Positions 21,498 through 61,728 of a stretch of 64,000 bases of DNA are shown in pieces. The translations under genes and the position numbers were made by a program. How positions within the stretch are numbered: the first letter of the stretch is position 1; each line of letters begins with the position of its first letter. Location of the stretch: contig JAAELW010000079.1 in assembly GCA_024226235.1 (NCBI GenBank), positions 366-64,365 on the forward strand, in the 5' to 3' direction. Source of the stretch: a bacterium (lineage in GTDB: Bacteria > Myxococcota_A > UBA9160 > UBA6930). Below the pieces are notes generated by a model, which searched no databases, had not been told where the DNA came from, and worked only from the letters and a program-made list of their open reading frames with translations.

Positions 21498-22661
21498 CTA
21501 CTCCGGCAACCCGAGGATGGTGACGGCGCAGACCGAGCCGGGGCCGCCCAGGTTGTGGGCCATTCCGAGGCGCGCGTTCTCCACCTGGGCCCCGTCGGCG
21601 CGGCCCTGGAGTTGTTTGGTGATCTCGCAGAGCATCCGACAACCCGTGGCTCCGATCGGATGCCCGAAGCACTTGAGACCACCACTGGCGTTGATCGCAA
21701 CCTTGCCGCCAACGTCCGCGTAACCCTCACGCACGAACTTCGCTGCCTCACCTCGCTCGCAGAATCCGAGATCCTGGATGTTCAGGAGTTCCGTGATGGT
21801 GAAGCAGTCGTGCACTTCGGCCAGATCGATCTCCTCAGCGGGGTTCTTGATCCCCGCCTCCGCATACGCCTGTCTCGCCGCATTCTCGGTGGCTGGGAAG
21901 CCCAGCCAGTCGTAGGCTTCCCGATACATCGGCAGGAAGACGTCCATGCTCAGCACGCTTGCCTTGGTCAGCGCATGATCATGCTTGTGCTTGCTCTTCT
22001 TGGCGATCTCGGGCCGGGTGATCACGACTGCGGCGGCCCCATCGGACATCGCGCAGGCATCGAAACGGCCCAGCGGCCAGGCGATCATCGGCGCGTTGAG
22101 TGCCGTCTCCAGGGTGATCTCCCGCTGGAAGTGGGCCTTGGAATGCTGGGCTCCGTTCTTGTGGTTCTTGACCGCCACTCGGGCGAGATCCTCCCGATCC
22201 CAGCCGTGCTCGTGAAAGGACCGCGTGGCTGCCAGCGCGAACATGCCCGGAGCACTGGAGCCGCGAAACACCGGATGCCCCATGTCCACGGGCAGACCGG
22301 ATCCACCGACGTCCATCAGCTTCTCCACTCCGCAGGCCAGCACCACATCATAGGCTCCGGAAGCGACCGCAAAGCAGGCGTTGCGGAAGGCGTCCATGCC
22401 CGAGGCACAGAAGTTCTCCACGCGCGTGGTCGGCCTTCCAAATAGCTTGAGGGGCTCGGCAGCAACACTGCCACTCAGGCCGGTGAAGTCATAGAGGTTG
22501 CCCACCCAGGTCGCTTCGATGTCATCCGGGGTGATCCCGGCATCGTCCATCGCCTCATACGCGGCCTCCACGATGAGATCTTCGGCGTCCTTCTCCCATT
22601 GCTCACCGAATTTCGTGCAACCAACGCCGATGATGGCTGTCTTGTCCTTCATGCTTCCCAT
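21498..22661 (-). CDS. SCPx/archaeal-type thiolase with intact catalytic residues
   Basis: Nucleophile block VENFCASGMDAF and C-terminal NASGGLKCFGHPIGATG are both present. Confidence 0.85.
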   Translation of the reverse strand: MGSMKDKTAIIGVGCTKFGEQWEKDAEDLIVEAAYEAMDDAGITPDDIEATWVGNLYDFTGLSGSVAAEPLKLFGRPTTRVENFCASGMDAFRNACFAVASGAYDVVLACGVEKLMDVGGSGLPVDMGHPVFRGSSAPGMFALAATRSFHEHGWDREDLARVAVKNHKNGAQHSKAHFQREITLETALNAPMIAWPLGRFDACAMSDGAAAVVITRPEIAKKSKHKHDHALTKASVLSMDVFLPMYREAYDWLGFPATENAARQAYAEAGIKNPAEEIDLAEVHDCFTITELLNIQDLGFCERGEAAKFVREGYADVGGKVAINASGGLKCFGHPIGATGCRMLCEITKQLQGRADGAQVENARLGMAHNLGGPGSVCAVTILGLPE

Positions 22662-22705
22662 GGGATTCCCCTCTCACTTCTTCGCGTTGTCCGTATCGCT
22701 CGCTG

Positions 22706-24121
22706 CTAGGAAGCCGCCTGCGGTACGGGCCGGCATTTCCAGTAGTAGTTGTGAAAGCTCGATGCCTCGTGCAATCGGCGGAAGACCACCTCTGCGGACA
22801 TGCCGATCTCGACCTCTTCCGGGTCACCGTCGGTCATCGAGAGGAAGAGGCGGCCTCCTCCCTCCAGATCCAGCACCAGGCGGGGAACGGGCACGTTCAC
22901 GTACTTGCCATCCTCGAGGTGATCGAGTGTGAAGGTGAAGACCGTGCCGGTCTTGGCCAGCTTGATCTCCTCGATCTCGTCCTTGGTCCCACACTCGCCG
23001 CACACGCGGGGAATCGGGTACAGCACAGCACCGCAACTAGTGCAGCGACCCGCGTGGAAGTTCAGCACCACCTTGATGTCCCGCCAGTAGGTAACGGCTG
23101 AACCACGTGGGTCGACGTCGGTAACCTTCATGAGCTTGCGGAAGCGGGCGTACGAAGTGTAGTTGGGCAGGTTCCTCTTCTGGAGGAGATGTCCGGTCAG
23201 TCCCTTCCGGCCAATGACGGGGGCGAAGTCATCGTCGAGGTCCACCAGGAAGGCATCAGCGCCGTCACCATGGTTCACCACCAGCAGCTTGTCGCCGGCC
23301 TTGGCCTGTTCCAGGGCCCCGGCGAGCATCATCAGTACCAGCGGAGATCCCGGATTGCCCACCGACATGAAGAGCATGTCCTGAAGCTTCGCAGCGTCCA
23401 GACCCAGACTTCGGGCTACCTTCCCCTGGCTTCCCGGATCGCCGGCCGTGATGATTGCGTTGGCGAGATCACCGGGAGCCAGATTCTCGTGGTCGAGAAG
23501 CGCTTTCCCCGCCTCGACGGCGCTCTTCAGATATCCGTATTTGGTCTCCACCTTGGGCTCGAAGGAGCGGATGTAGCGGTCTTCGCTGCGTCGCCAGAAC
23601 CCAAGCTGTTCGCCCGAGGTAGACTCGAAACCGCGCAGCGTTGCAGGCCCTCGTTTGGAGATCAGGATCGCACCGGCCCCATCCCCGAGTAGCTGTTCCC
23701 ACATCGATTCCGGTTCACCGAGACGGCAGTCCGCCGCGACCACCAGGATGCTCCCGGCCGAGCCGGAATCGACAGCATCGACCGCCGCGCGCAAAGCCGT
23801 ACTCGCCGCACGCAGTGAGCCGGTGAAGTCAGCGGTATTGATGTCCCTGCCCATGTCGAGGGCGGCGGCGATCACGCCCGCGCACTGTTTCTCGTCGTAG
23901 GGAGAAGTCGTAGTGGCAAAGTACAGGCCATCGATGGTCGTCGGGTCCAGACCCGTCAGGCAATCCGCACCCGCTGCCACCGCCATCGTGAGACTGTCCT
24001 CGTCGGCATTCGCAACGGACCGCTCGCCGGGAACTGCCGGAACTCCCCACGCACTCGCCATCTCCTGCCTGGAAAGCCTGAACAGGGGGATGTACGCACC
24101 GAATGATGCAATCTTGGCCAT
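22706..24121 (-). CDS. HMG-CoA-synthase-like (thiolase-fold) domain fused to a C-terminal DUF35 zinc-ribbon/OB-fold domain
   Basis: The N-terminus MAKIASFGAYIPLFRLSRQEM..DEDSLTMAV resembles archaeal HMGCS. The C-terminus has CTSCGAVLYPIPRVCGECG followed by an OB-like segment. ATG at 24121; the track start 24274 adds 51 implausible residues. Confidence 0.75.
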   Translation of the reverse strand: MAKIASFGAYIPLFRLSRQEMASAWGVPAVPGERSVANADEDSLTMAVAAGADCLTGLDPTTIDGLYFATTTSPYDEKQCAGVIAAALDMGRDINTADFTGSLRAASTALRAAVDAVDSGSAGSILVVAADCRLGEPESMWEQLLGDGAGAILISKRGPATLRGFESTSGEQLGFWRRSEDRYIRSFEPKVETKYGYLKSAVEAGKALLDHENLAPGDLANAIITAGDPGSQGKVARSLGLDAAKLQDMLFMSVGNPGSPLVLMMLAGALEQAKAGDKLLVVNHGDGADAFLVDLDDDFAPVIGRKGLTGHLLQKRNLPNYTSYARFRKLMKVTDVDPRGSAVTYWRDIKVVLNFHAGRCTSCGAVLYPIPRVCGECGTKDEIEEIKLAKTGTVFTFTLDHLEDGKYVNVPVPRLVLDLEGGGRLFLSMTDGDPEEVEIGMSAEVVFRRLHEASSFHNYYWKCRPVPQAAS

Positions 24122-24254
24122 GGTTTCTTCCTCTTCGAGTAATCGGCGATCGGTCCGTTCTCGTTCGTCCGAGGCAACGTGGAAACGGGACTGTATACGA
24201 TTCTGCCACGGATCCATCGGAGTGTGATCACCCGCTCCATCCGTTTCGAATTCG

Positions 24255-24296
24255 GGAAATGAGGGCCACTTCATTTCCTTGGGGGCAGGGGGGGGG
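24255..24296. repeat. 8-bp-stem hairpin followed by a G5-CA-G9 tract abutting the stop codon of the upstream ligase gene
   Basis: GGAAATGA (24255-62) pairs with TCATTTCC (24271-78). Then tt ggggg ca ggggggggg (24281-24296). The ligase stop (cta on +) is at 24298-24300. Confidence 0.85.
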
Positions 24297-24297
24297 C

Positions 24298-25917
24298 CTA
24301 GCCGGAGATTCCGAGCCGCTCCATCGCTTCCTCTCGCGTGCGCTTGAAATCGGCCTTGCCCGAGGGTGATCGGTAGACTTCAGCTACCCGCACCACGTGC
24401 TTGGGCGCCTTGAAACCGGCCAGGGATGCCTTCACGTGCTCGATGATCGCCGCGCTGTCCAACTCGCCTCCGTGGCTGGAGACGACGGCGGTGATGGCCT
24501 CGCCCCAGCGATCGTCGGGAACACCGACCACCACCGCGTCCTTCACACCGTCGAAACGCTTGACTACCTCTTCCACTTCTTCGGGGAAGACCTTCTCTCC
24601 CCCTGTATTGATGCATACCGAGCCGCGGCCGAGCAGACTGAGAGTGACCCCGTCCTCGTCGACCTCGGCCCAATCGCCGGGAACCGAAAAGCGGCCGGCC
24701 TCGCATTCGACAAAGGTCGCGGCAGTCTTCTCCGGGTCCTTGTAGTAGCCGAGGGGCTGGATGCCACCGACGCCGACCAGCCCGCGCGCCCCGGGTTCAC
24801 TCTCGATGAGTTCGAGGTTCTCGGTGAAGAGCCTCGTGGAGTCCGACAGCTGGAACTTTCCCGTCTGCACCGAGCCCGCCGCGGTGGTGAAGCTGATGCC
24901 AAGGCCGACGGCCTCCGAGGACCCGAATGCATCGGCCAGCACCAGGCCCGAGTGGTGGGCCAACAAACGCTGCTTCGTCTCCTCGCTCCACATCACTCCG
25001 GACGATGCGATCATGAACACGCTGCTGATGTCGTACGCGTCGGGATGCTCCTCGAGTTCCTTGGCCATGGGCTTGGCAAAGGGATCACCCACGATGGTGA
25101 TGGAGTTGATCTTCTCCGCACCCACGGTGCGCCACAGCTCAGCCGGATCGAACTTCCTGGGGTTCCCGAGGACGACCACGACGCCTCCACTGAACCAGGC
25201 AATCATCGCCTGAAACCAGCCCGTACCGTGCATCAGCGGCGGGCCGATCAGCGAGCGGTAGCGGACGGGCGGATTTTCCACGTAAGCGCGGTAGGCCTCT
25301 TCGGTCTCAGGAGTGGGGCCCGCACCGCCGCCGCCAAAGCGGGTAAAGATGTCGGCCTGACGCCACATCACTCCCTTGGGCAACCCGGTGGTGCCACCGG
25401 TGTAGAGGAGCATCAGATCGTCCGAACCATGTCTGGCCTCGACCGCGGGGCGATCGGTTTCAGCGGTGGCTTCGTAAGGTGCGGCACCGGCAATCGAGGC
25501 GATGTCATAGTCTCCGGCCTCTTCGACTACGAGCACACCCACGACCCGGGGCAGGTCGGGCAGCACCTTCTCGAGTAACGGGGCGAATTCCTCGTGCACC
25601 ACCACGATCTCGGCATCCGAGTTGTCGAGCAGGTAACGCAGCTCGTCTGCCTGGTAGCGATAGTTGACGTTGACGGGGACCAACGAGGACTTGAACGCCG
25701 CGTAGATGGACTCCATGTAGGCCGGATGGTTGTAGGTATAGACGGCGACCTTGCCCTGGCGTGTCGCACCGCACCCGGTCATCCACGCCGAGATGTTTCG
25801 GGCTCGACGTTCGACCTGGCTCCAGGTCATGCGTCGATCGCCCTGGATCAAGCTCTCTTCGTCAGCGCGGATTTCGGCGACGATGTCGAGAGCTTGGGCG
25901 AGGTTGCCGATGACCAT
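24298..25917 (-). CDS. Acyl-CoA synthetase (FadD-like, medium/long or polycyclic acyl substrate type)
   Basis: LLYTGGTTGLPKGVMW P-loop and C-terminal SPSGKADF. Paralogue of 28660-30297. Confidence 0.9.
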   Translation of the reverse strand: MVIGNLAQALDIVAEIRADEESLIQGDRRMTWSQVERRARNISAWMTGCGATRQGKVAVYTYNHPAYMESIYAAFKSSLVPVNVNYRYQADELRYLLDNSDAEIVVVHEEFAPLLEKVLPDLPRVVGVLVVEEAGDYDIASIAGAAPYEATAETDRPAVEARHGSDDLMLLYTGGTTGLPKGVMWRQADIFTRFGGGGAGPTPETEEAYRAYVENPPVRYRSLIGPPLMHGTGWFQAMIAWFSGGVVVVLGNPRKFDPAELWRTVGAEKINSITIVGDPFAKPMAKELEEHPDAYDISSVFMIASSGVMWSEETKQRLLAHHSGLVLADAFGSSEAVGLGISFTTAAGSVQTGKFQLSDSTRLFTENLELIESEPGARGLVGVGGIQPLGYYKDPEKTAATFVECEAGRFSVPGDWAEVDEDGVTLSLLGRGSVCINTGGEKVFPEEVEEVVKRFDGVKDAVVVGVPDDRWGEAITAVVSSHGGELDSAAIIEHVKASLAGFKAPKHVVRVAEVYRSPSGKADFKRTREEAMERLGISG

Positions 25918-25953
25918 TGCGAACTCCTTCTCTGCTGCGATCTGCCCTTGTGT

Positions 25954-27078
25954 TCATTCCTCGAGCAGCGTTGTCATTCGTTCCACGGTGTCGAAGAGTT
26001 CATCGATCACATCGGAGACCACCTTCCGAGCCGATCGCACCTGATTCATGCTGCCCACGACCTGGCCTGCAATCGTGACCGTCAGCTCCGCCGCAGTGGC
26101 ATTGCCCGCCAGTGCCGCTCTGAACGCGCGCTGCGTCGCGTCCGAGGTGGCCAGAAGCTGCAGCGGCATGGGCAACGTTCCAGGTGAGTTCGGCCCCTCC
26201 CACTCTTCGGTCCAGCCGCTGCGCAGCATACGTGCCGGCTTGCCGGTAATGCTGCGTGAGCGGACCGTGTCGCTCGAACTGGCCGCAAGCAGCCGATCGG
26301 TCACGAGAGGCTCCGCGTCGCTCTCTTTCGTCGTGAGCCAGATCGAGCCCATCCACACTCCCTGCGCACCGAGAGCCATCGCCGCCGCCATCTGGCGCCC
26401 GGAGCCGATCCCGCCGGCCGCGAGAACCGGCAGGGGCGCCACCGCATCGACCACCTCCGGCACCAACACCATCGTCGAAACCTCCCCCGTGTGGCCACCC
26501 GCCTCGGTCCCGGCGGCCACGATGATGTCGACACCCGCGGCCTTCTGATTCTTGGCCTGATCCGCGCGCCCTACCAGTGCTGCCACCTGCACCCCCGCTG
26601 CGTGCGCGCGCGCGATCACATCGGCCGGCGGCGGACCGAGAGCATTCGCGAGCAGCTTGATCGGATGGCTCATCGCGACGTCGACCAGCGCCCGGCCCAT
26701 GTTGTCCGACCAGCCGAGCAGGCTCTCGAAATGCGGCGCATCCTCGGATAGCGGGGGAACATCGTACCGGGCGAGCAACTCCTCCAGGAATCGCTTGTGC
26801 TCGTCGGGGATCAGCTTTTCGAGATCCAGCTTCTCGAGGCCACCCTGCTCCTTGCCCACGTAGGCGGCGGGGATCACGACATCGACTCCGTAGGGCTTCC
26901 CATTGACGTTCTCGTCGATCCACGTCAGTTCGCGCTCGAGCTCGTCGGGCGTGAAGACCAGCGCGCCGAGCACACCCATGCCCCCCGCATTCGTCACCGC
27001 GGCCACCACATCGCGACAGTGGCTGAAGGCGAAGATCGGATACTCGATTCCGAGCGATTCGCAGATGGAGACGCGCAT
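25954..27078 (-). CDS. Nitronate monooxygenase / FabK-like FMN oxidoreductase (NMO family)
   Basis: LGIEYPIFAFSHCRDVVAAVTNAGGMGVLG opening and a later AAGGIGSGRQMAAAMALGAQGVWMGS. ATG at 27078 (MRVSICE) with GGAG upstream. Confidence 0.8.
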   Translation of the reverse strand: MRVSICESLGIEYPIFAFSHCRDVVAAVTNAGGMGVLGALVFTPDELERELTWIDENVNGKPYGVDVVIPAAYVGKEQGGLEKLDLEKLIPDEHKRFLEELLARYDVPPLSEDAPHFESLLGWSDNMGRALVDVAMSHPIKLLANALGPPPADVIARAHAAGVQVAALVGRADQAKNQKAAGVDIIVAAGTEAGGHTGEVSTMVLVPEVVDAVAPLPVLAAGGIGSGRQMAAAMALGAQGVWMGSIWLTTKESDAEPLVTDRLLAASSSDTVRSRSITGKPARMLRSGWTEEWEGPNSPGTLPMPLQLLATSDATQRAFRAALAGNATAAELTVTIAGQVVGSMNQVRSARKVVSDVIDELFDTVERMTTLLEE

Positions 27079-27294
27079 TTTGGATGCTCCAATTCCAGGG
27101 CTTGATGGGATTCCGGCGTTGCCTGGATTCTTCTGTGGCATTCGACTCGAGTCAAGGAGGGTGGCCAGAGCCTTCTCTGCGGTGTCATCGAGAAGGAGGT
27201 AACGTGTGGCCACAAAAGGGCGTCATGGCGAGCGGCGCCGGGTCCGTTCCCATGGCTCTCAATCAGCCCTGAACAGACTCGAAAGGCCGTCGGT

Positions 27295-28635: not shown

Positions 28636-28659
28636 AGCACCCTTGACGATCGGTCGCAG

Positions 28660-30297
28660 CTACCCCTCGACCAGACCTCGTCTGCTGGCCGCATACGCCT
28701 CGGCCCATTGATAGTCGGGCTTCCCGCTTGGCGCCCGTTGGATCTCGTCGACCACATGCAATTCCCGGGGAACCTTGTATCCGGCGATCTGCGTGCGGAT
28801 CTCCTTCTGTATTTCGTCGAGGGAGATCTTCCTGTCATTCCGCACTGCAACCACTGCAGTCACCTTGCGACCCCAACGTTCATCGGGTGTGCCCACCACC
28901 AGGCAATCGAGAATGTCGGGATGGGCCTTCAACGCCTGCTCGACCTCTTCCGGAAATATCTTCTCACCGCCGGAGTTGATGCAGTTGGAACCGCGACCGA
29001 ATACGGTAATCGACTCATCCTCTTCCAGCTGTGCAGCATCACCGGTCAACAACCAGGCCTTGCCTTCCACTTGAATGACCGTTCTGGCCGTCTTCTCGGG
29101 ATCGCCGTAGTAACCGACAGGGAGATAGCCTGAACGCGCGAAGATCCCCATCTCGCCGGGTTGGGCCCGACGTGCGGGTCGACCCTCTTCTTCGACGATG
29201 ACATCCATGAATTCGCTGCGTGCCACATTGCCGAGACCCGCCGAGGTCTTCCTCTGTCCGCTGTCCATTCCCATCTGGCCCGATTCCGAAGAACCGAAGG
29301 CATTGGTGATGACAACATTGGGGAAGATCCGCTTGAACTCCTGTTGCTTGGAATCAGAGAAGACCGCACCCCCCGAACCGACGCTCAATACACAGCCGAG
29401 CTCCCAGCGATCGGGATTCGCCTTCAAGGTATCCAACAAGGGAACCGCCATGGCATCACCGACGATGGATATGGTGTTGATCTTTTCCTTCTCGACGAGA
29501 TCCCATACCTGCTCACCCTTGATGGACCTGTTCGGGTTGAGCACGAGTTTGTTGCCCGCCAGCATCTGGATACACGCGTACCACCAGCAAGCTCCGTGCA
29601 TCAGAGGGGCCAAAGCAATGCCGGAAAGGGTCAGGCCCTCCGTGGCGCGCGAGACGATGTCCTCGGGCTCGTGACAGGGGCCATCCGGATGAAAATGGCC
29701 ACCACCACCCATCCCAGCGAAGAACACCGATTTGTGCGGCCACATCACACCCTTGGGCATGCCGGTCGTACCACCGGTATAGAGAATGAACAGGTCGTCA
29801 TCAGCGCGCTGTTCGAAATCCCTTTGCGAGCTTCCTCCGCGGATTGCGGCTTCAAATTCTGTCGCACCGATCCCCGCCAATGCGAAGTCACTGCCGTCTT
29901 CCACTGAGATGAACAGCTTCAGGTCCGGAACCGAACCCCGTACCGCCTCGATCGCGGGAATGAATTCCCGACCGTGGATGCATGCCACCAGATCGGCATC
30001 ATCGAAGATGTAGAGAAGCTCCGCATCCACGTAGCGGTAGTTGACGTTGATCGGTACCGCACGGACCTTGAAACAGGCCAACATGCCTTCGAGGTATTCG
30101 TTGCAGTTGTACATGTAGAGACCGACGTGATCCCCAGCCTCGACGCCATGGTCTTTCAGGAAGTGCGCCAGGCGATTGGCACGTTCTTCCAACTCGCCGA
30201 AAGTGGATCGTGCCTCACCGCAGACCAGAGCCTCGCGTTCGGGCATGGCGTCCGCGACGAGTTCGAAGAGGTCGGCAATGTTGAAGGTCCTCTTCAT
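28660..30297 (-). CDS. Acyl-CoA synthetase (FadD-like)
   Basis: ILYTGGTTGMPKGVMW, FGSSESG, and C-terminal APSGKPDY. Confidence 0.9.
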   Translation of the reverse strand: MKRTFNIADLFELVADAMPEREALVCGEARSTFGELEERANRLAHFLKDHGVEAGDHVGLYMYNCNEYLEGMLACFKVRAVPINVNYRYVDAELLYIFDDADLVACIHGREFIPAIEAVRGSVPDLKLFISVEDGSDFALAGIGATEFEAAIRGGSSQRDFEQRADDDLFILYTGGTTGMPKGVMWPHKSVFFAGMGGGGHFHPDGPCHEPEDIVSRATEGLTLSGIALAPLMHGACWWYACIQMLAGNKLVLNPNRSIKGEQVWDLVEKEKINTISIVGDAMAVPLLDTLKANPDRWELGCVLSVGSGGAVFSDSKQQEFKRIFPNVVITNAFGSSESGQMGMDSGQRKTSAGLGNVARSEFMDVIVEEEGRPARRAQPGEMGIFARSGYLPVGYYGDPEKTARTVIQVEGKAWLLTGDAAQLEEDESITVFGRGSNCINSGGEKIFPEEVEQALKAHPDILDCLVVGTPDERWGRKVTAVVAVRNDRKISLDEIQKEIRTQIAGYKVPRELHVVDEIQRAPSGKPDYQWAEAYAASRRGLVEG

Positions 30298-30303
30298 GGC
30301 AGG

Positions 30304-32760: not shown

Positions 32761-32816
32761 GTCGACCTCCCAGGCCAGCATCGCCGAGCCGCCAACCGTC
32801 GTGCAGTGCGCTCGGC

Positions 32817-48384: not shown

Positions 48385-48442
48385 GGGTTTCTCCTGCTTC
48401 GAGGCGTGCAAAAGGAATGGCGGGCGATTCTAGCGAATAGGC

Positions 48443-54564: not shown

Positions 54565-54587
54565 CGTCTGTTGTCTCCACGCTCTCG

Positions 54588-55769
54588 CTAGTGCCTGGGA
54601 ATCCGAGGAAGACCCAATCCGAACAATCCGATCAGGTCGCGCTGGATTTCGTTGGTCCCGCCGCCGAAGGTGAGGATCACCAACGCGCGGTAGTAGGTCT
54701 CGCAACTGCCCTTGGCGACGGCGTGCGCCGAGCCCCGGACCAGGTAGCCCGGCTGCTCCAGCACCTCCATCATCAGCCGAAGCGCATCCATGAAGAACTC
54801 CGTGCCGAAGACCTTCGTCGACGAGGCATCCGCTGCGGACAGCGTGCCTTGCTCGGCCGACCAGGCCACCTTCCAGTTGATCAGCCGCAGGAACGAGATG
54901 CCCTTGTAGACCTTCGCCAGGTTGAGCTGCACCCAATCCTCGTCGATCAATCGACGCCCGTCGGGCAGCTCGGTCTCACGCGCGTAGGCGACGACGCTGT
55001 CGTAGCAGCCCTCGATCATGCCGGTGGAGCAGATCGTCACGCGCTCGTGGTTGAGCTGATTGGTGATCAACTTCCAGCCCCTGTTGAGGCCGCCGACGAT
55101 GTTCTTCGCCGGGACCCTGGCGTTCTCGAAGAAGACCTGATTGATGTTGTGCTCGGAGAGCAGATCGAGAGGTTGGATCTCGATGCCTTCGGTGTTCTTG
55201 AGGTCCACGATGATCATCGAGATGCCCGCGTGCTTGGGAGCCTCGGGGTCGGTTCGCACGGCGAGCCAGCAGTAGTCTGCACCCCCCGCGAGACTGGTCC
55301 AGGTCTTCTGCCCGTTGATCAGATACTCGTCACCATCGAGCTCGGCACGGCACTGCAGCGACGCAAGGTCCGTACCCGCCCCCGGTTCCGAGTAGCCGAT
55401 GCAGAACTCCACCTCGCCGGCCGCGATCTTCGGCAGATAGAATTGCTTCTGCTCCTCGGTCCCGAAGGCCATCAGGGTGGGGCCCACCGTATTGGTCGAG
55501 AGCATCGGGATCGGTGCACCACAGCGCATCGATTCGTCGAAGAAGATGAAATGATCGATCTCGCCGCGACCGCGTCCGCCGTATTGTTCGGGCCAGCCGA
55601 AACACAGCCATCCATCCCTGGCCATCTGCTTGCGAATCGCCTTGGTCCGCGATCCGAAGCCGTGCTCTTCCGCCAGCTCAGCCCGGACCTCCGGGGTCAG
55701 GAGCTTGTCGTAGTAGGCGCGCAGCTCTTTGCGCAACGCCTCCTGCTCTTCACTGTATCCGATGTACAT
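54588..55769 (-). CDS. Acyl-CoA dehydrogenase family protein (first of an adjacent pair)
   Basis: MYIGYSEEQEALRKELRAYY opening, GYSEPGAGTD, and C-terminal TFGGGTNEIQRDLI. GGAGAAAG lies upstream of ATG 55769. Confidence 0.85.
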   Translation of the reverse strand: MYIGYSEEQEALRKELRAYYDKLLTPEVRAELAEEHGFGSRTKAIRKQMARDGWLCFGWPEQYGGRGRGEIDHFIFFDESMRCGAPIPMLSTNTVGPTLMAFGTEEQKQFYLPKIAAGEVEFCIGYSEPGAGTDLASLQCRAELDGDEYLINGQKTWTSLAGGADYCWLAVRTDPEAPKHAGISMIIVDLKNTEGIEIQPLDLLSEHNINQVFFENARVPAKNIVGGLNRGWKLITNQLNHERVTICSTGMIEGCYDSVVAYARETELPDGRRLIDEDWVQLNLAKVYKGISFLRLINWKVAWSAEQGTLSAADASSTKVFGTEFFMDALRLMMEVLEQPGYLVRGSAHAVAKGSCETYYRALVILTFGGGTNEIQRDLIGLFGLGLPRIPRH

Positions 55770-55812
55770 GGTCTTTCTCCGTGGCTGCCAGTCATTCGAG
55801 GGTGAGGCACGC

Positions 55813-58191
55813 TCAGACGCCCTGCGGCCATTCGCCAATCACCTTCTCTGCTCTGAGCGCTTCGATCTGTGCGTCATCATGGCCGAGCTCGCGCAGGATC
55901 TCGGCATTGTGTTGGCCGAGCACCGGCGCCGCGCATTGCAGCCAGCTCTCGATACTCGCAAAGCGGAAGGGCACCGCCATCGTCGCCTGGGTACCCACGA
56001 TCGGGTGCGAAACCTCCTCGTGGAACCCGCGCGCAACCAACTGTGGGTGCTCGGCCAGGCTGCGAGGATCCACGACGGGGGCAGCCGGCACGCCGACGGC
56101 GATCAGCTCCGCGACGCAGCGATCGCGATCGAGGCTCGAAAACACCTCTGCCAGCCGCCGGTCGAGGGCATCCCGATGACGGTGTCGCTCCGTTAGCTCG
56201 GGTCCCGCACCGGTCGCCCAGGCCGGACGACCGAGCCAATCGACGAGCGCTGCCCACTGGGCCTCAGTGGCAACAGAGAGGGCCAGCCATTGCTGGCTCG
56301 TAGCAGGGTCGTGCCCCCTGCAGGCGTAGAGGCCCTGCGGAGCGGTCTCGGGGCTCCGGTTCCCCTGGCGTTCCATCAGGTGCCCGTGTCCCGTGTATTC
56401 GATCACCTGCTCGGCGGTGACGTTCAGAACGGCTTCCAGCATCGCGCATTCCACGAAGTGGCCGCGCTGGTCACGGTCGCACTCGGCCATCGCGACGAGC
56501 AGCGCAAAGGCGGCGTGCATGCCCGCAATCGGATCACATGGACCGCGCTGGATGCGCGGTTGGTCCTCCACGTGGCCCGTCAGCCAGGAGAGTCCAGCCA
56601 TCTGCTCCATGGTCGCCGCAAAGCCCACGAACTCGCGCCAAGGCCCGTCGAGACCAAAGGCCGGCATGCGGACGTAGTGGCAGCGCGGATTCAGCGCCTG
56701 CACCTTCTCCCAGCTGATATCGAAGCCATCCATCACCCGGGGGCTGAAGTTCTCGATCAGTACGTCCGCTTCGGCGACCAGCGACTCGAAGATCGCCATG
56801 CCCTTCGGCTGGGAGATGTCGAGCGCCAGACCGCGCTTGTTCGAGTTCGCGGAGAGGAAGACGAAGCTGCACTCCCACCAGTTCTCGTGCTGTGCGGCGA
56901 AGGTTCCGCCCACCGCACGGGCGCCGTCCATGCGCTGAACGGACTCGACGTGGATGACGTCGGCCCCGAGCGTGGCCATCATCTGCGTGGCGATCGGACC
57001 CGCCCACCAGGTCGTCGTATCGAGGATCCGGAGGCCCTGCAGGGGCAGACGCCTCTTGCCGGACTCGGGCGCCGGCTTGGCTTCGCGGGGCTCGATACGA
57101 CCCTGGTGTTCACCCAGGGCGGGCGCGGGTCGCGGAGGCTCGGGGGGCTGCCCGTCGATCCGATAGGGCAGACGGGGTCGGCGGAATCCACCGGACGGAT
57201 CCTCGATGAAGACGCCGCGCGCCCGCATCTGTTCGTGCTCGAGAACGGTCTGACCATTGCAGATCGGAGCGACGGGGATGCGAAGCATCTGTGCGAGTTT
57301 GATGATCTCCTCGCTGTCGTGCGTGTGGGTGTAGGCGTGGACGATCTCCTCCCAGTCCTCCAGCCGTGAGAGACGTTGCACGAACGCATCGAACTCGCCG
57401 GATTCGCGCAGATCCGGCCGTTCGATCATCAGCAGGAAGTCGGACATCTGCTGCGCCGAGTAGGTGGTGAAGCCGACGAAGCCATCCCGGGTGGGTTCGA
57501 TGGAGGGCGTTTCCATGTTCGGCAGCGAACCGACGACAGGCGGGCGTCCGAGAATGCCCCACATCAAGTCGAGGTAGCAGTTGGTCACCAGCGCAGTCGC
57601 TTCGTGCAGAGAGAAGTCGATGTGCTCACCGTGGCCGGTCGCCAGGCTATTCCGCACGGCGGCAAGCGCCGCCACCGCAGCGAAGCAGCCACCGGTCCAC
57701 TCGGACACGCGCCCACCCGCCTGGTAGGGCTCCGCACCAGGACGCCCCCTCGCTCCGAGTGAGCCGCTCTCTGCCTGGATCGTGAAGTCAGTGGAAGGTC
57801 GGCCGGCCAAAGGTCCCGTCAGCCCGAAGGGCGTGATCGAGAGGACGACGAGCGCCGGATGGCGCCCGCAAAGAGCGTTCCGATCGTAGGCGCCCGGCGG
57901 GAGATCCTCGATCAGGAGTTCGGCACCTGTGAGCAGCGCTTCGAACTCTTGCGAGGGGTCGTCGTCGAGACGGCCGATCACACCGCGTTTCGAGGCGTGC
58001 AGGTAGCGGAATAGCCCACCGTCCTCGTCCCCGAGCTCGGCGCTGGAGGCTGTCCACCGGCGCAGCGCATCCCCGTCGGGCGGTTCGACCTTGATCACGT
58101 CCGCGCCCGCGTCGGCAAACATCTTGCCGACGTACGAGCCGGCGATGCCGCTTGCGAGGTCGATCACCCGGATGTCCTTCAGACCCTCCAC
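55813..58191 (-). CDS. Tandem fusion of two family III (CaiB/BaiF) CoA-transferase domains
   Basis: Domain 1 opens IRVIDLASGIAGSYVGKMFADAGADVIKVEPPDG. A Pro-rich linker GQPPEPPRPAPALGEHQGRIEPREAKPAP follows. Domain 2 opens LRILDTTTWWAGPIATQMMATLGADVIHVES. The start is uncertain: the ORF is open to ATG 58341, but the first 50 residues look non-coding, so GTG 58191 is preferred. Confidence 0.8.
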   Translation of the reverse strand: MEGLKDIRVIDLASGIAGSYVGKMFADAGADVIKVEPPDGDALRRWTASSAELGDEDGGLFRYLHASKRGVIGRLDDDPSQEFEALLTGAELLIEDLPPGAYDRNALCGRHPALVVLSITPFGLTGPLAGRPSTDFTIQAESGSLGARGRPGAEPYQAGGRVSEWTGGCFAAVAALAAVRNSLATGHGEHIDFSLHEATALVTNCYLDLMWGILGRPPVVGSLPNMETPSIEPTRDGFVGFTTYSAQQMSDFLLMIERPDLRESGEFDAFVQRLSRLEDWEEIVHAYTHTHDSEEIIKLAQMLRIPVAPICNGQTVLEHEQMRARGVFIEDPSGGFRRPRLPYRIDGQPPEPPRPAPALGEHQGRIEPREAKPAPESGKRRLPLQGLRILDTTTWWAGPIATQMMATLGADVIHVESVQRMDGARAVGGTFAAQHENWWECSFVFLSANSNKRGLALDISQPKGMAIFESLVAEADVLIENFSPRVMDGFDISWEKVQALNPRCHYVRMPAFGLDGPWREFVGFAATMEQMAGLSWLTGHVEDQPRIQRGPCDPIAGMHAAFALLVAMAECDRDQRGHFVECAMLEAVLNVTAEQVIEYTGHGHLMERQGNRSPETAPQGLYACRGHDPATSQQWLALSVATEAQWAALVDWLGRPAWATGAGPELTERHRHRDALDRRLAEVFSSLDRDRCVAELIAVGVPAAPVVDPRSLAEHPQLVARGFHEEVSHPIVGTQATMAVPFRFASIESWLQCAAPVLGQHNAEILRELGHDDAQIEALRAEKVIGEWPQGV

Positions 58192-58255
58192 CCAGGCTAC
58201 CGACGTGTCTCGCGGGTCATTCCCTCTCCTCTCGGACTCCAGCCTTCGGGCGATT

Positions 58256-58297
58256 GAATCGGACGAGAGTCTGAAGTATCGTACGCTTGTCCGATTC
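58256..58297. promoter_or_regulatory. 9-bp inverted repeat pair in the divergent TetR / CoA-transferase control region
   Basis: GAATCGGAC (58256-64) and GTCCGATTC (58289-97), separated by 24 nt. A second inverted repeat, CAGCAG-n9-CTGCTG, lies just downstream. Confidence 0.35.
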
Positions 58298-58378
58298 GCC
58301 GGGCAACCATCCGATCCGTCCACCTGCAGCAGTTCGCCCATCTGCTGGAGGCTGTTGCAAGGGAGGGGGCCACGTCGC

Positions 58379-58999
58379 GTGTCGAAGGCGCCCCTCGAAC
58401 TGCTCCAGACCTACCGCCGCACCCAGATCCTGAAAGCCGCGAGCGAAGTGATCAGCGAAAGCGGTTACGACCGATCCTCGGTCGACCAGATCGCCAAGCG
58501 CGCCGGTCTCAGCCGCAGCACCATCTACGAGTATTTCCCGTCGAAGGACGAGATCCTGAAGGGATGCTTCGCCGCCCAACGCGAGGATCTCGCCGAGTCG
58601 CTGGCCCGACGCATCGACCGCGCCAGCGGAATGGAGCAGCAGCTCGCGGCCTTCTTCGAAATCTGTCTGTCACGAGTCGACCGGAACCGCGAGTTCTTCC
58701 GGGCGATCGCGTTCCCGATCCCCCTCTACGAGGCCACAGCCCAGGAAGGGCCGGGCAGCACGGAGTTCGCGCTGGTGCTCAAGAACTTCAACGACGAAAT
58801 GGACCGGATCCTCGACGACGGTCTCGGGCGAGGCGAACTCCGGCAGCCGGTCGGGCCAGCGGAGCGGGACAGCCTGGGCACGCTCCTCGTGGGCGCGATG
58901 AGCGCTCGGAGCCGGCTCGACGCACCGCCTCCGATCGAAGAGTCGGCCGCCTCGCTCGCGAGCTTCGCCCTTCGCGGCCTGGGCTTCGCGCTCGACTAG
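58379..58999 (+). CDS. TetR-family transcriptional regulator
   Basis: GTG at 58379 is preceded by GGGAGGGGG. HTH block YDRSSVDQIAKRAGLSRSTIYEYFPSKDEIL. Confidence 0.85.
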   Translation: MSKAPLELLQTYRRTQILKAASEVISESGYDRSSVDQIAKRAGLSRSTIYEYFPSKDEILKGCFAAQREDLAESLARRIDRASGMEQQLAAFFEICLSRVDRNREFFRAIAFPIPLYEATAQEGPGSTEFALVLKNFNDEMDRILDDGLGRGELRQPVGPAERDSLGTLLVGAMSARSRLDAPPPIEESAASLASFALRGLGFALD

Positions 59000-59058
59000 C
59001 ACACTCATTCGCCGACGATCGCGATCGATCGCGGCACCCTTGACCCCTCGAATGGACG

Positions 59059-59634
59059 ATGACCGAAACCGAAATGGACGAACTGAGAGAACGACTCGAG
59101 AAGTACGTCGGCAAGCCAATGGGCGCGGCGGCAGTTGCACCCGACCCGGTCAACCTGCCGATGATTCGGCATTGGGTGGCCGCGTTGGACGACCAGAACC
59201 CCGTGTACCTCGATCAGGAAGCGGCAGCCGGGAGTCGCTTCGGTGGGATCGTCGCCCCTCCGGCCATGCTGCAGGCCTGGACGATGCCCAGCCCCAAGAT
59301 CGAGGGCATCGCGGAGCGCGGCGGTGCGCCCAGGGAGAGTCGGGGCGAGAATCCGATTTCCATTCTCGACGAGGCCGGCTACGTCGGCACGCTGGCGACC
59401 AACTCCGAGCTCGAATTCCTCCGCTATCTGCGGCCGGGCGACCACCTCCACACGACCATGGAGCTCGAATCCATTTCGAGCCGCAAGAACACCAGCCTCG
59501 GACAGGGCTACTTCATCACCTGGGTGACGAACTACTTCGCGGGCGACGAGGAAATCGTGGGCAAGCAGCTCTTCCGCATTCTCAAGTTCGACCCAAGCAG
59601 CATCGACCCCAGCAGCCTGAAAGGTTCAGGATGA
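59059..59634 (+). CDS. Hot-dog fold protein, MaoC N-terminal-like (ChsH-type hydratase subunit)
   Basis: 191 aa. VNLPMIRHWVAALDDQNPVY and hot-dog-like beta segments. Its stop overlaps the next gene's start (ATGA). Confidence 0.7.
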   Translation: MTETEMDELRERLEKYVGKPMGAAAVAPDPVNLPMIRHWVAALDDQNPVYLDQEAAAGSRFGGIVAPPAMLQAWTMPSPKIEGIAERGGAPRESRGENPISILDEAGYVGTLATNSELEFLRYLRPGDHLHTTMELESISSRKNTSLGQGYFITWVTNYFAGDEEIVGKQLFRILKFDPSSIDPSSLKGSG

Positions 59635-60056
59635 AGACCGCGATCCCCAGTAGCAACGTCAAGGTCGGTCACGAGCTTCCCGAGTTCGCGCTTCCGGTCA
59701 CCTCGACGGTGATCGTCGCGGGCGCGATCGCATCGCGCGACTTCATGCCCGCACATCACGATCCCGAGTACGCCCGCGGTCAGGGAGCACCTGACATCTT
59801 CATGAACATCCTCACGACCAACGGCTACGTTGCGCGCTACGTGACCGATTGGGCCGGGTCGGAGGCGATGATCCGCACCATCCGGATCCGACTCGGGGGG
59901 CCCGCGGTCCCGGGCCAGCTCCTGCGCTTCACGGGGCAAGTGACGGCTGTGGGTGAGGAGGCCGACGAGCGAGTGATCGAGGTGACACTTCGCGCCGTCA
60001 ACGATCTCGGTGAACACGCCACGGGGACCGTCGTGGTCACCCTGCCGCTCACATGA
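59631..60056 (+). CDS. MaoC-like (R)-specific enoyl-CoA hydratase subunit
   Basis: 141 aa. SRDFMPAHHDPEYA resembles the MaoC hydratase motif. There is an ATGA overlap on both sides. Confidence 0.75.
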   Translation: MKTAIPSSNVKVGHELPEFALPVTSTVIVAGAIASRDFMPAHHDPEYARGQGAPDIFMNILTTNGYVARYVTDWAGSEAMIRTIRIRLGGPAVPGQLLRFTGQVTAVGEEADERVIEVTLRAVNDLGEHATGTVVVTLPLT

Positions 60057-61276
60057 CTGGACGCAAAGCACACATCGTCGGCGTCGGAGAGACGCTCTAC
60101 ACACGCTGGGGCAAGATCGGCGACGTGACGGAGCACGCCCTCGCATGCCAGGCGATCGGTCGCGCCGTCGAGGACGCGGGGCTCGACCTATCCGACGTCG
60201 ACGGCCTCGCTTCCTTCGCCGAGGACCGCAACGAGGCGACCTTCCTCGCGGCGGAGCTTGGGCTCCCCTCGCTGCGCTTCGCCAACATGGTTTGGCTGCC
60301 CGGTGGAGGAGGTGGCTGCGCCGCGGTGGGCAACGCGGCGATGGCAGTGGAAACCGGCCAGGCCGAAGTGGTCGTGGTCTACCGTTCGCTCTGTCAGGGG
60401 CAGTTCTTCCGCTTCGGGGCCGCGGGCAGGGACCCGACAGCGCCGGTCGATCCGGCCCCGCCGACCGTCAAGCCGGCAGGCTCCCTGATGCTGGCCTCGA
60501 TGGGCTTCGCCATGCCCTACGGCCTGCTGATGGCCGCTGCCGCCTACGCCCTGCCGACCCGTCGCCACATGCATCTCTACGGCACCACGACCGAGCAGCT
60601 CGGAATGTTGGCAGTGACCTTTCGGGAGCACGCCAGCCGCAATCCCCGCGCGGTGATGGGCGGGCGCCCGATGACCTTGGCCGACCACCAGGCTTCTCCG
60701 ATGATCGCCGACCCGCACCGCCTGTTCGACTGCTGCCTCGAAAGTGACGGCGCCTGCGCCGTGGTCGTCACCACCGAGGAGCGCGCACGCGATCTCGCGA
60801 AGCGGCCCGTAGAGATCCTCGCGAGCGTGCAGGGTGCACCCAAGGGCTACGGCTTCGGCCCCTTCACCAACGCCAACATCGCCGACGAGATCTACGCTAC
60901 CGGCGGCACCGAGGAGATGGCGAATCGACTCTGGGAAAAGGCCGGTCTCGGCCCGAGCGATGTCGACGTCGCCGAGATCTACGACCACTTCACCGGCTGT
61001 GTCCTGATGCAGCTCGAGGACTACGGCTTCTGCAAGAGAGGGGAAGGTGGACCCTTCATCGAGAGCGGCGCACTCGCCTGGCGAGGTGGAAGCCTGCCCA
61101 CCAACACCCACGGCGGAAGCCTCTCCGAGGCCTACATCCACGGTCTCAACCACGTCGTCGAGGGTGTCCGCGCGCTGCGCGGTGAATCGACCAGTCCCGT
61201 CGAGGGCGCCGAAGTCGGCCTCGTCACGAGCGGAGCCTGCGTTCCATCGAGCGCCGTCTTGCTCGGGCGACGCTAG
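60053..61276 (+). CDS. Thiolase-fold lipid-transfer-protein (Ltp)-type enzyme
   Basis: KAHIVGVGETLYTRWG opening. GGGGGCAAVGNAA retains a Cys, but the C-terminal block reads NTHGGSLSEAYIHGLNH (no GHP), as in Ltp2-like aldolase/thiolase proteins. Confidence 0.8.
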   Translation: MTGRKAHIVGVGETLYTRWGKIGDVTEHALACQAIGRAVEDAGLDLSDVDGLASFAEDRNEATFLAAELGLPSLRFANMVWLPGGGGGCAAVGNAAMAVETGQAEVVVVYRSLCQGQFFRFGAAGRDPTAPVDPAPPTVKPAGSLMLASMGFAMPYGLLMAAAAYALPTRRHMHLYGTTTEQLGMLAVTFREHASRNPRAVMGGRPMTLADHQASPMIADPHRLFDCCLESDGACAVVVTTEERARDLAKRPVEILASVQGAPKGYGFGPFTNANIADEIYATGGTEEMANRLWEKAGLGPSDVDVAEIYDHFTGCVLMQLEDYGFCKRGEGGPFIESGALAWRGGSLPTNTHGGSLSEAYIHGLNHVVEGVRALRGESTSPVEGAEVGLVTSGACVPSSAVLLGRR

Positions 61277-61284
61277 GGGAACAG

Positions 61285-61728
61285 ATGAGCGAGCGTTTCT
61301 TTCCCGACAGCATGCCGCCGCCGCTGGCGGATTCTACGACGCTCCCCTGGTGGGAGGCAGCAGCGGATCATCGCCTGGTCGTGCAGCGCTGCACACCGTG
61401 TGGGCACACCCGCCTACCTCCGGCGCCCATCTGTCCGGAGTGTCGATCCACCGAGTCCGACTGGCAGGAGGTATCCGGCCGCGGCCGTGTCTACACCTAC
61501 ACTGCGGTCCACCGGCCGATCGCCGCCGGACAGGAACTGCCCTTCATCATCGCGGTGATCTCGCTCGAGGATGCCGGCGGTCTGCGGATCATCTCGAACC
61601 TGGTCGGCACCCCACCCGAGGCGGTCACGATCGACATGCCGGTCGAGTTGGTCTGGGAAGACATGAGCGCCGAGCTGTCCATTCCACGTTTCCGCCCCGT
61701 TCCGACCCCCCCTTCCGATGAAGACTGA
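61285..61728 (+). CDS. Stand-alone DUF35 zinc-ribbon/OB-fold protein
   Basis: CTPCGHTRLPPAPICPECRS ribbon followed by the OB segment GRGRVYTYTAVH. Confidence 0.8.
   Translation: MSERFFPDSMPPPLADSTTLPWWEAAADHRLVVQRCTPCGHTRLPPAPICPECRSTESDWQEVSGRGRVYTYTAVHRPIAAGQELPFIIAVISLEDAGGLRIISNLVGTPPEAVTIDMPVELVWEDMSAELSIPRFRPVPTPPSDED

Follow-up and report, generated by a model that had tools for sequence, protein, structure and literature searches.

A Myxococcota-type gene region juxtaposes three DUF35-associated enzyme sets that resemble those of sterol side-chain degradation

RESULTS

DUF35 domains in the window and in the genome

We analyzed a 64,000-nt stretch of bacterial DNA (here called the window; coordinates refer to it unless another contig is named), focusing on the genes for DUF35 domains that it carries and on the thiolase-fold and hydratase genes beside them. 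The window lies on contig C79 of a 5.07-Mb assembly (564 contigs, ~90% complete), and the analysis covered domain content, catalytic-residue status, family membership, phylogeny, synteny, and phyletic pattern. It has a G+C content of 63% and encodes a TonB-dependent receptor and an AcrB-type pump, and thus comes from a diderm bacterium; the closest public loci are in metagenome-assembled genomes (MAGs) labeled Deltaproteobacteria or Myxococcota. The DUF35 genes fall into three sets, which we refer to as modules 1, 2, and 3. Judged from their sequences, these sets are not local duplicates of one another; they are juxtaposed, old, separately evolving enzyme families, and all three architectures are known kinds of enzymes.

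The original prediction had reported four DUF35 domains in three architectures, each set adjoining a thiolase-fold gene and a hydratase. Pfam matches to OB_ChsH2_C/zf-ChsH2 and an independent whole-genome scan recovered the same four domains: one at residues 408 to 499 of the open reading frame (ORF) 22706-24274, two stretches in 35887-36885, and one in 61285-61728. The named neighbors were also present, although some needed correction. What had been given as one thiolase-fold gene at 33672-35887 does encode that fold but is two translationally coupled genes, 33672-34826 (Ltp3-like) and 34826-35887 (Ltp4-like). The pair of MaoC hydratase genes at 59059-60056 exists as 59059-59634 and 59631-60056, whereas the ORF listed there (59040-60056) is out of frame over its first ~197 residues. 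Likewise, the fusion of a DUF35 to a domain like 3-hydroxy-3-methylglutaryl-CoA (HMG-CoA) synthase (HMGCS or HMGS) was confirmed, but that domain lacks the catalytic Glu, Cys, and His. The fused and the solo DUF35 retain CxxC...CxxC, whereas the tandem DUF35 protein is without any CxxC pair and therefore has no zinc ribbon.

Genome-wide, the scan found 14 DUF35 domains in 12 proteins. All 14 adjoin a thiolase-fold gene, so this adjacency is a general rule and not a peculiarity of the window. Under uniform placement, 3 of the 12 proteins would fall within 39 kb with a p of ~0.035, and 4 of the 14 domains with a p of ~0.0015. The clustering of DUF35 genes in the window is thus real but modest.

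Module 1 pairs an intact thiolase with a pseudo-HMGS/DUF35 fusion

The genes of module 1 are as follows.

20658-21458, minus strand: crotonase ECH_A, an EchA19-like enoyl-CoA hydratase (ECH_1, E 2e-57)
21498-22661, minus strand: SCP2/archaeal-type thiolase with intact catalytic residues (PRK06157, 511 bits, over the cutoff)
22706-24121, minus strand (ORF open to 24274): pseudo-HMG-CoA-synthase domain fused to a zinc-ribbon DUF35 (best PDB matches, 6esq HMGCS and PhlA)

The fusion protein most likely starts at 24121, because its homologues start aligning there. The thiolase gene lies 44 nt downstream, and this pairing is kept in ~58 of 62 related loci surveyed. The thiolase carries the motifs CASG (Cys85), HDCF (position 284), and GHP (position 333), and its nearest solved structures are 7yvy and 6esq_A. 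When the HMGS-like domain is compared with 6esq_I, Glu82 is replaced by Thr, Cys114 by Leu, and His238 by Thr, while Asn270 is retained; the DUF35 fused to it has the zinc motif CTSC...CGEC. The losses of Glu, Cys, and His are common to all 57 aligned homologues, whose hosts are Myxococcota-type MAGs, Dehalococcoidia, Binatia, Bacillota, Halobacteriota, and Asgard archaea. An active HMG-CoA synthase or a mevalonate role for 22706-24121 is ruled out, the three residues being gone in every homologue, Asgard proteins included. The Asgard loci (L040, L042, L045 to L049, L051, L053, and L061) have the same thiolase and HMGS-like/DUF35 fusion with Glu, Cys, and His already lost; the dead-HMGS fusion is therefore neither a bacterial invention nor the mevalonate HMGCS of Asgard archaea.

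A system of this design was recently described in Pseudomonas fluorescens, where an ACAT with the Cys, HDxF, and GHx motifs is accompanied by a fused HMGS-DUF35 whose HMGS lacks the E-C-H-N tetrad. PfACAT/HMGS-DUF35 cleaves acetoacetyl-CoA, forms no HMG-CoA, and needs the His of HDxF, and its authors considered that it had yet to be recruited to a defined pathway (PMC12960953, Nat Commun 2026). Its relatives include the archaeal thiolase/HMGCS/DUF35 complex (PDB code 6ESQ) and PhlABC/MucABC. Module 1 resembles it in the adjoining SCP2/archaeal-type thiolase with the CxS Cys, HDxF, and GHx (CASG, HDCF, and GHP in the window), in the HMGS-like domain without catalytic residues that bears a Cys4-ribbon DUF35 on its C terminus, and in a window that shows no polyketide synthase (PKS) or nonribosomal peptide synthetase (NRPS) genes. 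It differs in that the Asn of the tetrad is kept, that the pair belongs to a Myxococcota/Dehalococcoidia clade (the fusion is ~46% identical to the sole gammaproteobacterial homologue recovered, L041), and that it is embedded in a catabolic cluster with CoA-ligase, hydratase, and Ltp3-Ltp4 genes. This likeness was judged from the described features of the Pseudomonas system; by those features, module 1 is of the ACAT/HMGS-DUF35 type, a known and recently characterized kind.

Two other systems, the benzoylsuccinyl-CoA thiolase BbsAB (PDB code 7PXP) and Sal-Shy of Comamonas (PDB code 9MYR), are comparable in having a thiolase-fold dimer that is flanked by DUF35, either as a subunit or as a domain. 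BbsB and the module 1 thiolase appear to share HDxF thiolase chemistry, but the matches are far weaker (204 bits against a cutoff of 750 for the BbsB model and 37 against 250 for the BbsA model).

Across phyla, the top conserved neighbor of the thiolase/HMGS-DUF35 pair is a ~300-amino-acid (aa) short-chain dehydrogenase (15 of 62 loci; for example, L026:5690-6658), the N terminus of which resembles the MFE-2/(R)-3-hydroxyacyl-CoA dehydrogenase type. An MFE-2-like dehydrogenase beside the pair in other genomes fits a β-oxidation role for the pair.

Module 2 matches the actinobacterial Ltp3-Ltp4-tandem DUF35 trio

Module 2 comprises four genes.

32817-33620, minus strand: crotonase ECH_B, an EchA19-like enoyl-CoA hydratase (ECH_1, E 2e-50; PRK07799, 351 bits, over the cutoff)
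33672-34826, minus strand: Ltp3-like thiolase-fold protein without the nucleophile Cys (PRK08313, 570 bits against a cutoff of 514)
34826-35887, minus strand: Ltp4-like thiolase-fold protein without the nucleophile Cys, CGHP kept (PRK07937, 458 bits against a cutoff of 419)
35887-36885, minus strand: tandem double DUF35 of the Rv3521 type, no zinc-binding Cys (two OB_ChsH2_C stretches)

The Ltp4-like gene overlaps each of its flanking genes by 1 nt. No C[AS][ST]G motif occurs in either thiolase-fold protein; in the alignment of the Ltp3-like protein, Gly replaces the Cys and a Tyr stands at the HDxF/YDHF position. We take PRK08313 and PRK07937 to correspond to Ltp3 and Ltp4 of Mycobacterium tuberculosis, and named actinobacterial loci agree. 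ECH_B and ECH_A of module 1 both score over the cutoff of PRK07799 (369 bits for ECH_A) and under the cutoff of 400 bits of the EchA19 equivalog model, NF051848 (340 and 346 bits, respectively), and are thus EchA19-like rather than EchA19 equivalogs.

The two halves of the tandem DUF35 protein are 28% identical. A PDB sequence search with it gave no match even at an E value of 1, and it was recognized by fold search only: the top PDB folds for its AlphaFold2 model (predicted local distance difference test score, 85.8) are the DUF35 partners of Ltp2, Sal, archaeal thiolase/HMGCS, PhlABC, and BbsAB. We recovered 1751 homologues, none of them functionally named.

The order tandem DUF35, ltp4, ltp3 is conserved in all 14 Actinomycetota loci drawn from a 151-genome sample and in at least 75 of 80 loci of a wider survey across phyla, and was seen in Nocardia, Saccharopolyspora, Amycolatopsis, Microbispora, Actinomadura, and many Acidimicrobiia. 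Identity to orthologues from cultured actinobacteria is 58 to 65% for Ltp3, 45 to 54% for Ltp4, and 36 to 44% for the tandem DUF35. Trio neighbors in these organisms also recur in the window, namely, an NMO gene (48 to 58% identical to 25954-27213), an acyl-CoA ligase (42 to 45% to 28660-30297), and an EchA19-like crotonase (50 to 58%). In the Nocardia loci, an acyl-CoA dehydrogenase (ACAD) pair beside fadD17-like genes is 48% and 40% identical to the window pair at 53.4 to 55.8 kb. Module 2 is thus like the actinobacterial Rv3521-Ltp4-Ltp3 system with EchA19 and FadD19 (M. tuberculosis Rv3515c-Rv3523) in gene order, in PRK07937 and PRK08313 matches over the cutoff, in two thiolase-folds without the Cys nucleophile, and in its EchA19-like hydratase, NMO, and FadD neighbors. 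It is unlike that system in its host, a Gram-negative Myxococcota-type organism, and in the linkage of the trio, in the lineage of the window, to the thiolase/HMGS-DUF35 pair, which was unseen in Actinomycetota.

Rhodococcus rhodochrous ltp3 and ltp4 were reportedly the subject of a study by Wilbrink in 2012. In M. tuberculosis, Rv3521 (a conserved hypothetical), ltp4, and ltp3 lie near echA19 and fadD19 (PMC6429209). In Rhodococcus, C24-branched sterol side chains require ltp3 and ltp4, and the pair has been proposed to be a heteromeric aldol-lyase (PMC6678751). The Ltp3/Ltp4 reaction has been deduced only from knockouts in Rhodococcus, and the likeness of the window genes is one of sequence and gene order.

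Modules 1 and 2 lie on the same strand. In descending coordinates, the minus-strand order is tandem DUF35, Ltp4-like, Ltp3-like, ECH_B, ACAD, family III CoA-transferase, and ligase. Past a plus-strand gene of the acetyl-CoA hydrolase/transferase family, which sits between ligase 28660-30297 and NMO-like gene 25954-27213, it continues with the NMO-like gene, ligase 24298-25917, the HMGS-like/DUF35 fusion, the thiolase, ECH_A, and ligase 18925-20598.

Module 3 resembles the igr hydratase-aldolase unit, with a split DUF35

The hydratases of module 3 are of the MaoC type, not crotonases. The unit and its immediate neighbors are listed below; G128 is a complete genome of the same genus.

53443-55838, minus strand: two ACAD genes, a ChsE-like pair (Pfam; 80% and 89% identical, syntenic in G128)
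55813-58341, minus strand: tandem two-domain family III CoA-transferase (two CoA_transf_3 stretches; 77% identical in G128)
58091-58999, plus strand (start probably later): TetR-family regulator, divergent from the ACAD/CoA-transferase genes (TetR_N at ORF residues 113 to 157; 63% identical in G128)
59059-59634, plus strand: hotdog-fold hydratase subunit, ChsH2-like without its DUF35 (FAS1_DH_region, E 1.6e-13)
59631-60056, plus strand: MaoC hydratase subunit, ChsH1-like (MaoC_dehydratas, E 1.5e-8; 4-nt overlap with both neighbors)
60053-61276, plus strand: Ltp2-type retro-aldolase (E 5.6e-81 to TcLtp2, 6ok1_A)
61285-61728, plus strand: stand-alone DUF35, 147 aa, with an intact Cys4 zinc ribbon, CTPC...CPEC (OB_ChsH2_C, E 9e-20; zf-ChsH2, E 3e-12)
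61769-63235, plus strand: flavin monooxygenase downstream of the DUF35 gene, like Baeyer-Villiger and flavin-containing monooxygenases (BVMO/FMO-like; Pfam FMO-like, Pyr_redox_3)

The Ltp2-like protein keeps Tyr294 and Tyr344 (Thermomonospora curvata numbering), and its YDHF and SEAYIHG align with YDHF and GEAYIHG of 6ok1_A; its best-scoring model, PRK07855, reaches 420 bits, under the cutoff of 469. With YDHF, it is unlike Sal, whose type of motif, YDCY, it lacks. The product of 59059-59634 and the MaoC portion of a MaoC+DUF35 fusion encoded on contig C214 of the same genome share 40% identity. The listed ORFs of the ACAD pair overlap, and the downstream gene probably starts at ~54.58 kb.

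Module 3 is like the ChsH1-ChsH2-Ltp2 set of the igr operon (M. tuberculosis; Ltp2-ChsH2DUF35 of T. curvata, PDB code 6OK1) in that two hotdog/MaoC genes precede an Ltp2 with both catalytic Tyr residues, an ACAD pair lies nearby, and the DUF35 has a Cys4 ribbon. The differences are that the DUF35 is a gene of its own downstream of ltp2, not the C terminus of ChsH2, and that the set comes with genes for a tandem family III CoA-transferase and a BVMO-like enzyme. The split DUF35 is also seen in G128 and G162, whereas the BVMO/FMO-like gene does not adjoin module 3 in G128. Stand-alone DUF35 partners are known from ChsH4 (PMC10398937), and ChsH4/Atf1 of Mycolicibacterium neoaurum is comparable to the arrangement in module 3.

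Paralogues of the tandem CoA-transferase lie directly beside thiolase/HMGS-DUF35 pairs at ~2.377 Mb on contig C1 of G128 (L072; 53% identical) and in L034 (70%), a recurring association.

The three modules are not products of local duplication

The original prediction had read the three sets as one hydratase, C-C-cleaving enzyme, and OB-scaffold unit, duplicated and rewired three times in this lineage, and had proposed phylogenies and comparison with relatives as checks. Its observation that the two crotonases are paralogous was sound: ECH_A and ECH_B are each other's nearest paralogues in the genome (54 to 55% identical), and all three motifs quoted for them occur in both. The other families do not fit. 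The window thiolase-folds are only 25 to 30% identical pairwise; the fused and free DUF35 domains are 31% identical, and the tandem halves scarcely match the others. In a 70-sequence thiolase-fold tree, the four window proteins fall in four clades (Shimodaira-Hasegawa approximate likelihood ratio test [SH-aLRT] support of 97 to 100), are never sisters, and share each clade with orthologues from other genomes. The DUF35 tree likewise has four clades that match the partner clades, with the tandem halves as sisters; the two trees mirror each other, indicating that co-diversification was ancient. Even ECH_A and ECH_B fall in separate orthologue clades (SH-aLRT, 99), each with members from at least six other genomes; additional EchA19-like lineages come between the two clades, and the ECH_B clade includes same-genus orthologues at 78 to 79%. 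Orthologues with the same architecture occur in other phyla, those of modules 2 and 3 in Actinomycetota and those of module 1 in Dehalococcoidia and Asgard archaea. Recent local duplication is thus ruled out by the pairwise identities and the three trees.

Comparison with relatives also told against duplication in this lineage, because the modules differ in history. In G128, the module 3 unit (ACAD pair, tandem CoA-transferase, TetR, MaoC pair, Ltp2, and DUF35) is syntenic and 63 to 91% identical, TetR being the lowest at 63%, and has the same split DUF35; for module 3 itself, the identities are 77 to 91%. Neither G128 nor G068, also of the same genus, has close orthologues of the fusion or the tandem DUF35; they have only paralogues at ~40% and ~47%. 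Close orthologues of the fusion (at least 72%) and of the tandem DUF35 (at least 65%) occur in the same genomes as each other (G008, G151, G154, G157, G159, and G161 to G164). In L004, L008, and L010, the tandem-DUF35, Ltp4, Ltp3, fusion, and thiolase genes follow one another with nothing intervening, and in L012/G161, modules 1 and 2 form one contiguous cluster. In G162, the thiolase is 98% identical to that of the window, versus 85 to 86% for Ltp2. The shared phyletic pattern, the adjacency, and this difference in identity fit a patchy, co-inherited, mobile accessory cluster consisting of modules 1 and 2, placed in a genus genome in which module 3 descends vertically.

As a separate observation, G128 has paralogues of all three module types within about 110 kb (C1:2270000-2384000). 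This region holds Ltp2-like genes, a half tandem-DUF35 with Ltp4/Ltp3, two EchA19-like genes, a FadD19-like gene, thiolase/HMGS-DUF35, a tandem CoA-transferase, and DUF35+Ltp2.

DISCUSSION

A proposed role in side-chain degradation

Sterol side-chain degradation involves three kinds of C-C cleavage: by an aldol-lyase at the C24 branch, by a thiolase in the ordinary cycles, and by the Ltp2 aldolase, which removes the last propionyl unit (PMC6678751, PMC12329534). The window has counterparts of many actinobacterial genes for this process, including a CasG-like ligase, two EchA19-like hydratases, two ligases of the type found beside the trio, Ltp3/Ltp4/tandem DUF35, a ChsE-like ACAD pair, and a MaoC pair with Ltp2. 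From these likenesses we infer the complexes, reactions, reaction order, and substrate class proposed here. By analogy, the region is probably a catabolic island whose substrates are lipids activated with CoA and bearing side chains that are branched or attached to a ring; these lipids are likely sterol-, steroid-, or isoprenoid-like. Three kinds of C-C-cleaving enzymes would here be held by DUF35 domains. What looked like a triplicated module would then be a juxtaposition of three old families that cover the three C-C cleavage chemistries. Since the modules map onto these three activities, the idea that they carry out successive shortening on one substrate class is reasonable, so that this part of the original prediction stays plausible by analogy even though the triplication is refuted.

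In this scheme, module 1 would be a true β-ketothiolase that removes acetyl- or propionyl-CoA from 3-oxoacyl-CoAs by thiolysis. Module 2 would be a heteromeric aldolase, in which the EchA19-like crotonase feeds the Cys-less Ltp3/Ltp4 pair and this pair carries out retro-aldol cleavage of β-hydroxyacyl-CoAs with a fully substituted β carbon. The zinc-free tandem DUF35 could provide both of the unlike subunits with an OB domain each and so act as a single-chain staple for the Ltp3/Ltp4 heterodimer, a structural hypothesis that mirrors the arrangement in Ltp2 and Sal, where a homodimer is flanked by two DUF35 domains. Module 3 would be an igr-like terminal aldolase, with the MaoC hydratase and Ltp2 removing the last propionyl-CoA and the free-standing DUF35 substituting for the usual C-terminal domain of ChsH2. 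As for the order of events, ECH_B would hydrate first; Ltp3/Ltp4 would then cleave the tertiary β-hydroxyacyl-CoA by a retro-aldol reaction to give a β-keto acid; an adjacent ligase or CoA-transferase would reactivate this acid; and the module 1 complex would thiolyse the β-ketoacyl-CoA.

The rest of the genome bears on this proposal. A canonical set lies on contig C214 (C214:11446-31954), with ACADs, ChsH2 with a fused DUF35, ChsH1, and Ltp2, together with an MFE-2-type short-chain dehydrogenase/reductase, a second tandem-DUF35/Ltp4/Ltp3, and a FadA5 that scores 581 bits against the cutoff of 515 for the "steroid 3-ketoacyl-CoA thiolase" equivalog, a cutoff passed in none of 14 control genomes. 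The set in the window is therefore a second, divergent one, and perhaps serves a different side chain than the C214 set. The FadA5 equivalog on C214 also rules out that the thiolase/HMGS-DUF35 pair stands in for FadA5 in this organism.

If this reading is right, the locus gives the ACAT/HMGS-DUF35 complex, so far without an assigned pathway, a defined catabolic setting; this context, and the lineage-specific coupling of the dead-HMGS complex to Ltp3/Ltp4, are its chief interest. It also makes uncultured Myxococcota-type bacteria likely degraders of sterol- or isoprenoid-like lipids, with canonical and variant gene sets. A more specific and distinctly tentative suggestion is that the "orphan" ACAT/dead-HMGS-DUF35 is a dedicated β-ketothiolase that acts directly after Ltp3/Ltp4/tandem-DUF35 in a debranching route, with joint horizontal transfer of the two machines among bacteria of Myxococcota type and others from marine or sediment habitats.

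Alternative explanations

Several observations weigh against a shared role in side-chain degradation. The window is without P450, 3-ketosteroid dehydrogenase/hydroxylase, ring-degrading, and biotin carboxylase genes, and a search of it for an MFE-2-type 3-hydroxyacyl-CoA dehydrogenase found none, so that several steps of a sterol pathway are not encoded there. In our literature search, no paper turned up in which the Ltp3/Ltp4 reaction or tandem DUF35 proteins had been studied biochemically. The thiolase/HMGS-DUF35 pair stands beside the Ltp3/Ltp4 trio in only 1 of the 80 trio loci across phyla and near none of those surveyed in Actinomycetota, and Dehalococcoidia have the pair without the trio. 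These figures rule out a universal coupling of the pair to Ltp3/Ltp4; the coupling is lineage-specific. Another view, which we consider unlikely though by no means negligible, is that the modules serve unrelated pathways and are close together incidentally in a genome crowded with such genes. Module 1 might, for example, perform Bbs-type thiolysis of short-chain or alicyclic/aromatic substrates, module 2 act on one branched lipid, and module 3, with a TetR gene of its own alongside, act on another steroid or terpenoid. Proximity is weak evidence against this (p only ~0.035), because the genome holds 12 DUF35 proteins, all beside thiolase-folds, and ~18 thiolase-folds of the SCP2 type. Module 3 occurs alone in the complete genome G128; in the window it lies 17 kb from module 2, with transport and housekeeping genes between them (an ABC exporter, asd, a thioesterase, and a resistance-nodulation-division [RND] pump) and TetR divergently upstream. 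The pair without Ltp3/Ltp4 is also found in Binatia and Asgard archaea. Against unrelated pathways, however, modules 1 and 2 share a phyletic pattern and form one operon in several genomes, the genes around all three modules match one actinobacterial sterol set (FadD19/CasG-like, EchA19-like, FadD17-like, ChsE-like ACADs, and Ltp2/3/4), and G128 again groups paralogues of all three module types at 2.27 to 2.38 Mb.

Two further explanations fare much worse. A biosynthetic module 1, acting as a PhlABC/MucABC-type C-acyltransferase or condensing enzyme, finds some support in the best PDB matches of the HMGS-like domain, which include PhlA- and MucA-type structures, and in the fact that PhlA also lacks the Cys and Glu of HMGCS. 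The thiolase nevertheless retains the HDxF His, which is needed for thiolysis and is lost in PhlC and MucB, and its neighbors are CoA ligases, hydratases, ACAD, and CoA-transferases, with no PKS or NRPS found in the window; the retained His and the catabolic context make a PhlABC-like acyltransferase very unlikely. The nearest characterized architecture, PfACAT/HMGS-DUF35, cleaves acetoacetyl-CoA and does not condense (PMC12960953). Duplication and rewiring of a single hydratase, C-C lyase, and DUF35 unit in this lineage is scarcely credible. The close kinship of the crotonases and the mirrored DUF35 and partner trees speak for it, but the thiolase-folds and the DUF35 domains (at most 31% identical) are too divergent, the four deep clades contain cross-phylum orthologues, other lineages separate ECH_A from ECH_B, module 3 uses MaoC in place of a crotonase, and the modules differ in their inheritance patterns. 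A catabolic island of juxtaposed families thus remains the reading that we favor.

Other genes in the window and genome

The remaining genes near modules 1 and 2 that bear on CoA activation and oxidation, with the flavoprotein gene immediately upstream of the tandem DUF35, are as follows.

18925-20598, minus strand: acyl-CoA ligase, FadD19/CasG-like (Pfam AMP-binding; best NCBIfam match, steroid-24-oyl-CoA synthetase CasG, 690 bits against a cutoff of 750)
24298-25917, minus strand: acyl-CoA ligase of the PRK07798 subfamily (FadD2), 36% identical to ligase 28660-30297
25954-27213, minus strand: NMO/FabK-like flavin mononucleotide (FMN) oxidoreductase (Pfam NMO)
28660-30297, minus strand: acyl-CoA ligase of the PRK07798 subfamily (FadD3), 42 to 45% identical to the trio-adjacent ligase in Nocardia, Saccharopolyspora, and Amycolatopsis
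30304-31437, minus strand: family III CoA-transferase (Pfam CoA_transf_3, E 7e-86)
31534-32781, minus strand: acyl-CoA dehydrogenase ACAD1 (Pfam Acyl-CoA_dh N, M, and C; 87% identical, syntenic in L012)
36943-38796, minus strand: CrtI/carotenoid-isomerase-family flavoprotein, 617 aa (Pfam Amino_oxidase; weak TIGR02730 and TIGR02734)

The FadD2 ligase gene adjoins the fusion gene in L001, L012, L033, L035, and L037. The flavoprotein gene has ~72% DNA identity in G068. A search of the genome with KshA_C found one Rieske oxygenase, of 324 aa, at C62:26303-27277; when the sequences of its neighbors were read by eye, they looked like a TetR regulator and a short-chain dehydrogenase, and no recognizable steroid-ring cluster was seen there.

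Between 7728 and 13286 lie genes for a luciferase-like monooxygenase (7728-8714), a thiamine diphosphate (ThDP) enzyme (8778-10526), a dienelactone hydrolase (11570-12295), and a PhyH-family dioxygenase (12333-13286). NCBIfam matches of the ThDP enzyme include 2-hydroxyacyl-CoA lyase, under the cutoff. A PhyH protein with a 2-hydroxyacyl-CoA-lyase-like enzyme would resemble α-oxidation of 3-methyl-branched acids, and the two genes are a hint that the substrate might instead be acyclic isoprenoid acids. Six co-oriented genes follow at 13287-18888, downstream of the ligase/crotonase/thiolase genes, and encode a small hypothetical protein, an AhpD/CMD-like protein, an AurF-like diiron protein, a flavin adenine dinucleotide (FAD) oxidoreductase (PF12831), a Gfo/Idh/MocA dehydrogenase, and a SnoaL-fold protein. 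A gene for an HpcH/CitE-family (acyl-CoA) lyase-like protein, at 47338-48411, lies beside the RND pump in the interval that separates module 2 from module 3.

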